A stretch of DNA of 64,000 nucleotides from NCBI GenBank assembly GCA_964016885.1, contig OZ024752.1:36704001-36768000 (forward strand), read 5' to 3'. The DNA is from Eledone cirrhosa. Taxonomy: Eukaryota. Positions within the stretch are counted from its first letter, which is position 1, and each line of letters opens with the position of its first letter. The position numbers and the translations under genes are program-made. Shown here one piece after another: positions 22,289 through 22,840 of this stretch. Under the pieces are notes generated by a model. That model did not search any database, was not told the origin of the DNA, and worked only from the letters and a program-made list of their open reading frames with translations.

Positions 22289-22292
<4 letters not shown>

Positions 22293-22840
22293 GGAAAAAA
22301 TGAAAAGAAATTTCATTTCCCACTCTTAGTATGGCTGTTACTTAAATATAAGTATGTACACGTACATACATATATGTATACAGACGTACAGTAGTATGTA
22401 TATATATACATACATGCACACATATATACATGTACGTATGGATTCACCGAACATTTATTATAATGCTCGGTGTGTTTGTAAACAAACATTCCGTATTAAG
22501 CCGTAGTGTCCAGCAACCACCGTTGCTCGTTTGTTCAACACTGACAAAGGAACGCTGTACTAGTTTCAAGCTTATTAGCTATCGTCAGCAACGTATACCT
22601 TCCTGCCAGATTGTTGAACGTATATACTTAGGCTTATGCATATTAACGGCTGAGTAGCCCAATTTGCATATCGAGTGGGTTAATCGGCCGGATGCACCGA
22701 AAACGATAAACGGAAAAAATGAAACGAAATTTCATTTCCCACTCTTAGTACGGCTGTTACTTAAATATAAGTATGTACACGTACATACATATATGTATAC
22801 AGACGTACAGTAGTATGTATATATACATACATGCACACAC
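22289..22840 (-). ncRNA. Family E retrozyme-like partial tandem (419-bp period) with hammerhead (minus 22552-22594)
   Basis: ACGUUG-CUGACGA-uAGCUaauaAGCUu-GAA-ACUAGU-A-CAGCGU. acggaaaaaatgaaa repeats at 22291 and 22710. Plus-strand copy at 39643-39985. Confidence 0.88.

Follow-up and report, generated by a model that had tools for sequence, protein, structure and literature searches.

Architecture of a 1.3-unit retrozyme copy in Eledone cirrhosa and the RNA template from which it was probably written

In a 64,000-nucleotide (nt) stretch of the Eledone cirrhosa genome (NCBI GenBank assembly GCA_964016885.1, contig OZ024752.1, positions 36,704,001 to 36,768,000 of the forward strand; the window, in whose coordinates features are given below), a non-coding repeat with a hammerhead ribozyme motif occupies about 550 nt, which amounts to 1.3-1.35 of its 419-nt units; the question that this locus raises is which enzyme wrote a copy longer than its own unit, and from which RNA. 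Proposals of 2014 and 2020 describe a retrozyme/Penelope cycle in which a ribozyme cut is followed by ligation and by reverse transcription over more than one unit (PMC4209133 and PMC7229834, both available in part; such sources are marked "in part" below). Here we conclude that the window copy belongs, as an ordinary member, to a kind of element already known, and that it is probably a 1.3-unit retrozyme copy written by a Neptune-type Penelope enzyme, likely from a monomer RNA circle closed by RtcB. More tentatively, a family-wide survey suggests a history in which the hammerhead cut its RNA in the germline, an RtcB-made circle once swallowed the intron of a tRNA-Lys, and a Penelope dimer primed both ends of a (TA)n target on the same circle; we consider this account plausible rather than probable.

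The repeat unit and its hammerhead motif

A sequence-only reading of this locus had claimed that about 130 bp are directly repeated 419 bp apart, that the minus-strand order is tail, linker, hammerhead, tail, and that there is one hammerhead per unit, and all three features were recovered. The repeat copies lie at 22289-~22420 and 22708-~22837, 419 nt from start to start; they differ at two positions in their first 118 nt, both of them CpG sites in the family, and beyond these by a 2-nt slip within a TA-rich part. Read on the minus strand, the copy runs from a partial tail through the linker, the single type I hammerhead and the tail into (TA)n. Unit coordinates (u) are counted on this strand, u1 being 22707 and u419 being 22289. 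The full unit (u1-u419; 22289..22707, 37.7% GC, without a credible open reading frame, ORF) is preceded by a 5'-truncated partial unit, about u285/274-419, at 22708..22851, whose 5' end is blurred by a microsatellite at 22835-22851. The (TA)n run at the 3' end (22196..22288) is the likely insertion target, and such flanks hide any target-site duplication, which in known retrozymes is longer than 4 bp when present. The unit holds only low-complexity stop-to-stop frames and no ORF for a reverse transcriptase (RT) with a GIY-YIG domain; therefore the window copy is not an autonomous endonuclease-bearing (EN+) Penelope-like element.

The hammerhead motif, identified by motif and by eye, spans 22553..22593 on the minus strand and consists of the stem I arms, CUGACGA (22588-22582, u120-126), stem II, and GAAAC with a palindromic 2-bp stem III (22567-22558, u141-150). 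Self-cleavage is predicted after GUA, between 22558 and 22557, that is, after u150. Stem III has two pairs around the palindrome, the form of dimer-type hammerheads (PMC4209133, in part), so that cleavage is predicted for the dimer, and the duplex of two hammerhead copies has a predicted energy of -6.8 kcal/mol; an isolated 61-mer does not adopt the active fold (z -1.06). The base of stem II carries a U.U, which is also found in the axolotl HHR_Amex2 (PMC7229834, in part). Exact matches to two 35-nt variants of the motif number 5,424 and 1,859 in the whole 3.0-Gb genome (here G000), and those to the reversed controls number 0, so the motif is not a product of chance. One family copy, at G000:C3:298673593, has lost the entire catalytic core u121-150, exactly up to the predicted cut.

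The family thus counts more than 7,000 exact hammerhead matches, with units of 419-422 nt and three subfamilies that are 1.0, 2.0 and 2.4% diverged. Longer tandem arrays, for which a genome search had been proposed, do exist: they range from 2 to at least 44 units and include arrays of 3-5 independently aged units. The longest is a satellite-like array of about 21 kb at G000:C1:51772395-51793780 (loci L061-L063), and another long one lies near C1:53356204-53368648. Taken together, unit, motif, copy number and anatomy support well the identity proposed at the outset, a retrozyme of the kind without long terminal repeats (non-LTR).

Folded as circles, two natural units gave z values of -8.1 and -8.9 (40 shuffles), partly because of TA palindromes. 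The common variants that were scored lie in loops or preserve pairs in 14 of 16 cases, whereas 173 of 309 rare variants disrupt predicted pairs, which equals the random rate (common versus rare, p 4e-4); among lower-frequency variants, 3 of 5 disrupt a pair. One predicted helix crosses the unit junction, joining u29-35 (22673..22679, minus strand) to u383-389 (22319-22325 or 22738-22744), and in this helix the pair C30-G388 is C/G in 105 of 130 units and T/A in 13, a change to U-A that marks the subfamily S2. The modelled pairing is consistent with an RNA fold under selection.

Fixed 3' ends and the Penelope-type machinery

To describe how copies begin and end, 197 arms were mapped in 116 non-redundant loci, a set that excludes a large array, the Penelope loci and sequences retrieved in overlap; six arms that touched a locus edge or adjoined an assembly gap were removed, which left 191. 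The 3' ends fall at two places about 55 nt apart: 92 arms end at u408-419 (long end) and 86 at u340-372 (short end, in 64 cases exactly u365), with 13 elsewhere; no 3' end comes within 6 nt of the cut. In 79 of the 92 long-end arms and 64 of the 86 short-end arms the end is followed by a TA run. The 5' ends are scattered, only one of the 191 lying near the cut. The window copy has the long end (u419; 22287..22291, minus strand), with a 3-nt TA microhomology, as its putative start of reverse transcription; the short end (u363-365; 22341..22353, minus strand), in a predicted hairpin loop with a 5-nt TA microhomology, would be a second start that this copy left unused. Both ends thus sit at predicted loop or junction positions that contain UAU, with 3-5 nt of TA microhomology. 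The possibility that the linker (between tail and hammerhead in the window copy) never takes this place in other copies had been named as a refutation; that order proved to be the rule among them.

Many insertions are inverted pairs with their tails outward. Among 61 such pairs, 54 have two canonical ends and the other seven a damaged end, and in 50 of the 54 a long end is combined with a short one (p 4e-11, with one local duplicate among the pairs). If a dimeric enzyme primed at two fixed sites, inverted insertions would for that reason carry one end of each kind, and the rule turns the long-noted one-sided tail of Penelope elements into a testable model in which such an enzyme primes each DNA end separately.

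The remaining anatomy, that is, 5' truncation, partial tandems, inverted copies, a tail at one end and a microsatellite target, is also of Penelope type, as described in PMC8557442 (in part), and two internal starts of reverse transcription have been shown in PMC11167929. Two fixed internal 3' ends, both remote from the ribozyme, determine the phase of every copy, which is a Penelope signature. The genome contains 10,597 GIY-YIG candidates, among them long frames for RT and GIY-YIG with the CX4CXXC linker of the Neptune/Nematis type. One Neptune-type family (RT, CX4CXXC, GIY-YIG) has a hammerhead with U.U and a palindromic stem III, and its copies end at two places separated by about 50 nt. 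A query with the long end yielded 30 loci, every one of which has the long end in TA, and the short end is present in 4 of 4 inverted partners with visible ends, five more having run off the locus. This family (L180, L217-L246) is young, about 99% identical and targeted to TA, and is a candidate active element. Our analysis makes it likely that the retrozyme was inserted by a borrowed Neptune-type Penelope reverse transcriptase-endonuclease. The partner is assigned by class only, because none of 40 GIY-YIG loci, out of the 10,597 candidates, shares sequence with the family, except for one full family copy lying next to such a locus, a result that counts against the borrowing. Copying from a tandem pseudo-LTR (pLTR), which had been offered as an alternative source, would be the work of the same machinery, but no autonomous element sharing sequence with the family appears in those loci.

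The RNA template and the captured tRNA intron

A linear monomer cut by the hammerhead allows at most about 270 nt to be copied from the long start, and the window copy measures about 550 nt. This limit is exceeded by 149 of 178 arms, and by 35 of 54 among the shorter ones, rates that are inflated because the queries used to select loci span the cut site; the share of arms longer than one unit (104/178) is inflated by the same ascertainment. The cut itself is crossed cleanly, with one deletion in 260 units, and genome-wide 18 + 9 copies start there versus 45 at a control site, whose patterns were not exactly matched. Clean crossing without an excess of starts indicates that the RNA was continuous at the cut, and therefore either a circle or a multimer that was uncut or re-ligated. 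Of the earlier claim that reverse transcription went more than once round a circle of about 419 nt, the more-than-unit copying is well supported, while a 1.3-mer fits a linear multimer equally well.

Variants shared among units bear on this choice. In the young insertion L188, two rare variants are common to 9/9 units of both arms, and in L009 and L017 rare variants are shared by 3/3 units. At the marker u399 no discordance occurs, either in arms (0 of 57) or in pairs (0 of 37), where 36% was expected. In the arms of L122, L057 and L197 subfamily markers are mixed in adjacent units, as might follow from gene conversion, template switching or linear multimers.

Evidence of another kind comes from inserted sequence at the cut. 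Among inserts of 1-30 nt, five hits were recovered there: a single extra base, local duplications in two cases, and the two arms of one inverted insertion, L212 (the control site gave two hits, both local duplications). L212 lies on G000:C2 at about 365,192,500-365,193,550, with its short end on the left and its long end on the right; its arms are 96% alike and neither contains the other. Both carry an identical 19-nt insert exactly between u150 and u151, the position that corresponds to 22557..22558 in the window copy, and no other family copy in the genome has it, allowing up to 3 mismatches. The 19-mer occurs at six other places in the genome, and in all of them it is the 19-nt intron of a tRNA-Lys(TTT) gene. 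The canonical position of a tRNA intron is after nucleotide 37. With this position and with 73 gene matches, in which the exons are constant while the introns vary, the intron boundaries coincide exactly with those of the inserted sequence; the placement by ARAGORN is shifted by 1-2 nt. About 40 intron-containing tRNA-Lys(TTT) genes are clustered at G000:C2:99.02-99.11 Mb (L252-L260), partly in 1.29-kb tandem repeats and with variable 19-nt introns.

The presence of a whole tRNA intron precisely at the predicted cut would be difficult to account for if the RNA had not been open there in the germline and afterwards been copied into DNA, and the captured intron points to a tRNA ligase. tRNA introns are joined by RtcB and serve as its substrates in tRNA intronic circular RNAs (tricRNAs), and they share the relevant end chemistry (PMC6614914, in part); hammerhead products bear the same ends (PMC7229834, in part). 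Joining of a 2',3'-cyclic phosphate to a 5'-OH before reverse transcription has a precedent in the RtcB-made chimeras of U6 with LINE-1, a long interspersed element (PMC6789731; PMC13247085; both in part). Unlike these chimeras and the tricRNAs, as far as the same sources go, a whole intron between ribozyme-cut ends needs two joins, and the enzyme would be the same by analogy. L212 suggests cleavage in vivo and RtcB-type ligation before reverse transcription, and its simplest reading is one cleavage, two ligations and the priming of both DNA ends on a single RNA. The circular template of the sequence-only reading is in this way supported, by one captured intron, as regards the passage through a cut and rejoined RNA; a closed monomer circle is not proven.

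The proposed mechanism would then run as follows: the predicted ribozyme would cleave the RNA to monomers, RtcB ligation would close the monomer into a circle, and the borrowed Neptune-type enzyme would copy this circle into a (TA)n run; for the window copy, about 1.3 turns would have been made and the long-end arm alone retained.

Several observations weigh against this proposal. Rfam gave no hammerhead call, at gathering score or at E<=10, but only TA-repeat look-alikes; self-cleavage in this family is a prediction from the modelled motif, and 8/9 Xenopus retrozyme dimers did not cleave (bioRxiv 2026.07.22.740005). The intron capture is a single event: among inserts of 4-34 and 31-60 nt at the cut only L212 and local duplications appeared, and a loose search for ends like those of the Lys intron behind any hammerhead motif gave 82 hits versus 30 in the control, of which only L212 was convincing by eye. 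Its right junction is sharp and its left one has 2 nt of microhomology, and, because each arm has a single cut site, L212 does not discriminate between a circle and a linear RNA that was re-ligated. A rare variant is shared between arms in only 7 of 50 inverted pairs (cross-locus control 25/890), and the subfamily concordance could reflect successive waves.

Part of this evidence would suit a template that is a linear multimer derived from an array, mostly uncut or re-ligated at a nick held together by the long stem I, and copied by the same Penelope-type machinery from the same two starts. The hammerhead is predicted to be weak, uncleaved RNA was the dominant substrate of the Anolis Penelope in vitro (PMC11167929, which also found the ribozyme dispensable there), a mosaic appearance is seen in 8 of 58 multi-unit arms, linear multimers could come from an array of at least 44 units, and the intron of L212 could have been ligated into the nick. 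However, rare variants present in all units (those of L188, L009 and L017) and three subfamily sweeps need a bottleneck of one unit, and arrays could not grow longer in a cycle that is linear throughout, yet as many as five units per arm are found in young insertions; we therefore regard this alternative as rather unlikely. It is improbable that the RT instead jumped from the 5' to the 3' end of a cut linear monomer, with the intron acquired by a double jump and the second arm copied from the first. An intron exactly at the nick, with microhomology on one side, would suit such jumping, and in 39 of 50 pairs one arm could lie wholly within the other, as fold-back copying would have it (33 expected by shuffling). 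The cut shows no excess of stops or scars, though, its inserts outside L212 being the extra base and the local duplications (three hits vs two at the control), and containment fails for L212 and for 11 of 50 pairs (16.9 +/- 2.9 expected by shuffling), unless the centre of the palindrome was later deleted. Finally, the unit might be SINE-like (a short interspersed element) or a satellite multiplied by local duplication of DNA, with an incidental hammerhead. Some long arrays did grow at the DNA level, as the unequal-crossover patterns of L064, L065 and L070 indicate, but thousands of dispersed copies share one permutation with fixed 3' and free 5' ends, and the probable selection on the RNA fold and the tRNA intron at the cut also count against this explanation, which is largely refuted by the family-wide mapping of ends and variants and which we consider very improbable.

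Two further candidates were rejected. Dimer circles, first suggested by the alternating dimer arrays of L064 and L065, gave way to later unequal crossover, which fits the variant patterns, and classical twin priming on one linear RNA, in which the long arm stops at the short start, was seen in 4 of 50 pairs with 4.9 expected. RNA editing as a source of A/G differences had a weak skew in its favour (rare non-CpG A>G 67 vs T>C 42), and the discordance within arms came mostly from loci chosen for their likeness to the window copy. Contigs of two sequencing runs guessed to be RNA matched over only about 35 nt at <95%. Run X8, of unrecorded type, covers the unit and the tandem joint, and run X3, which extends over unique flank, behaves as DNA; the insert junction of L212 found no confirmation among the listed pieces of the sequencing runs, whose types are unrecorded. 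These matches speak neither for nor against expression.

Relation to known systems and other repeats of the window

The family resembles the metazoan non-LTR retrozymes (PMC7229834; bioRxiv 2026.07.22.740005; both in part) in its tandem non-coding unit, within the range of 150-450 bp and below 45% GC, in its one type I hammerhead per unit, and in a strongly self-paired predicted circle; for them too a dependence on Penelope has been proposed. It differs in being known here from genomic sequence alone, in the single motif of the window copy, and in the lack of a pLTR homolog in the 40 GIY-YIG loci, and the insertion-end map and the genomic trace of ligation given here have no counterpart in the available parts of those papers. 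With the EN+ Penelope-like elements of the Neptune/Nematis type (PMC8557442; PMC11167929; PMC4209133; all in part) it shares 5' truncation, partial tandems, an inverted 5'-truncated copy, the one-end tail, two internal starts, (TA)n targets and the palindromic dimer-type hammerhead; unlike them, it has no ORF, and its tail measures about 55 nt versus their 30-40. At both of its starts a few nucleotides of TA are shared with the target, whereas no homology is needed where the Anolis element begins (PMC11167929), and the pairing of one long with one short end is counted here (50 of 54). Judged by testable features, the family appears to be a metazoan non-LTR retrozyme moved by Penelope-type machinery, with a predicted cleavage and a predicted circle. 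Judged by title, the listed papers on cephalopod Penelope elements with hammerheads do not concern this family. The published literature that was searched contained neither an intron capture nor a counted end rule, although supplements and Repbase may bear on both, and the term "tRNA intron" is absent from the available part of bioRxiv 2025.02.02.635956. A general screen is suggested by L212, for foreign RNAs with 5'-OH or cyclic-phosphate ends at ribozyme cuts, which would be repeated in each unit if the template was circular.

The window contains a second family copy (u94-419) at 39643..39984 on the plus strand, between TA runs. A family of short hammerhead motifs, with U.U at the base of stem II, occurs at 9706/9713, 40815, 42145 and 45423; at 9706/9713 it is inverted back to back, it ends in TA or TC runs, and it is also present in L179, L182 and L186. 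At least five more hammerhead-like repeat families were seen (37838, 40333, 54347, 55885; 10336, 60465; 30065; 29757, 35787, 61048, 61078; and 16472). A copy of the U6 small nuclear RNA at 28938-29038 (minus strand) lacks its 5' end, is bordered by a TA run where it is truncated and finishes at its 3' end in a T-tract; the TA-targeting machinery considered here may have produced it as a retrocopy. A tRNA-like sequence lies at 34760-34830 (plus strand, 55 bits). The window copy itself is flanked by a 175-nt inverted repeat, at 22025-22199 and 23696-24000, and a perfect palindrome with 134-nt arms at 23729-24000 comes from another repeat family.
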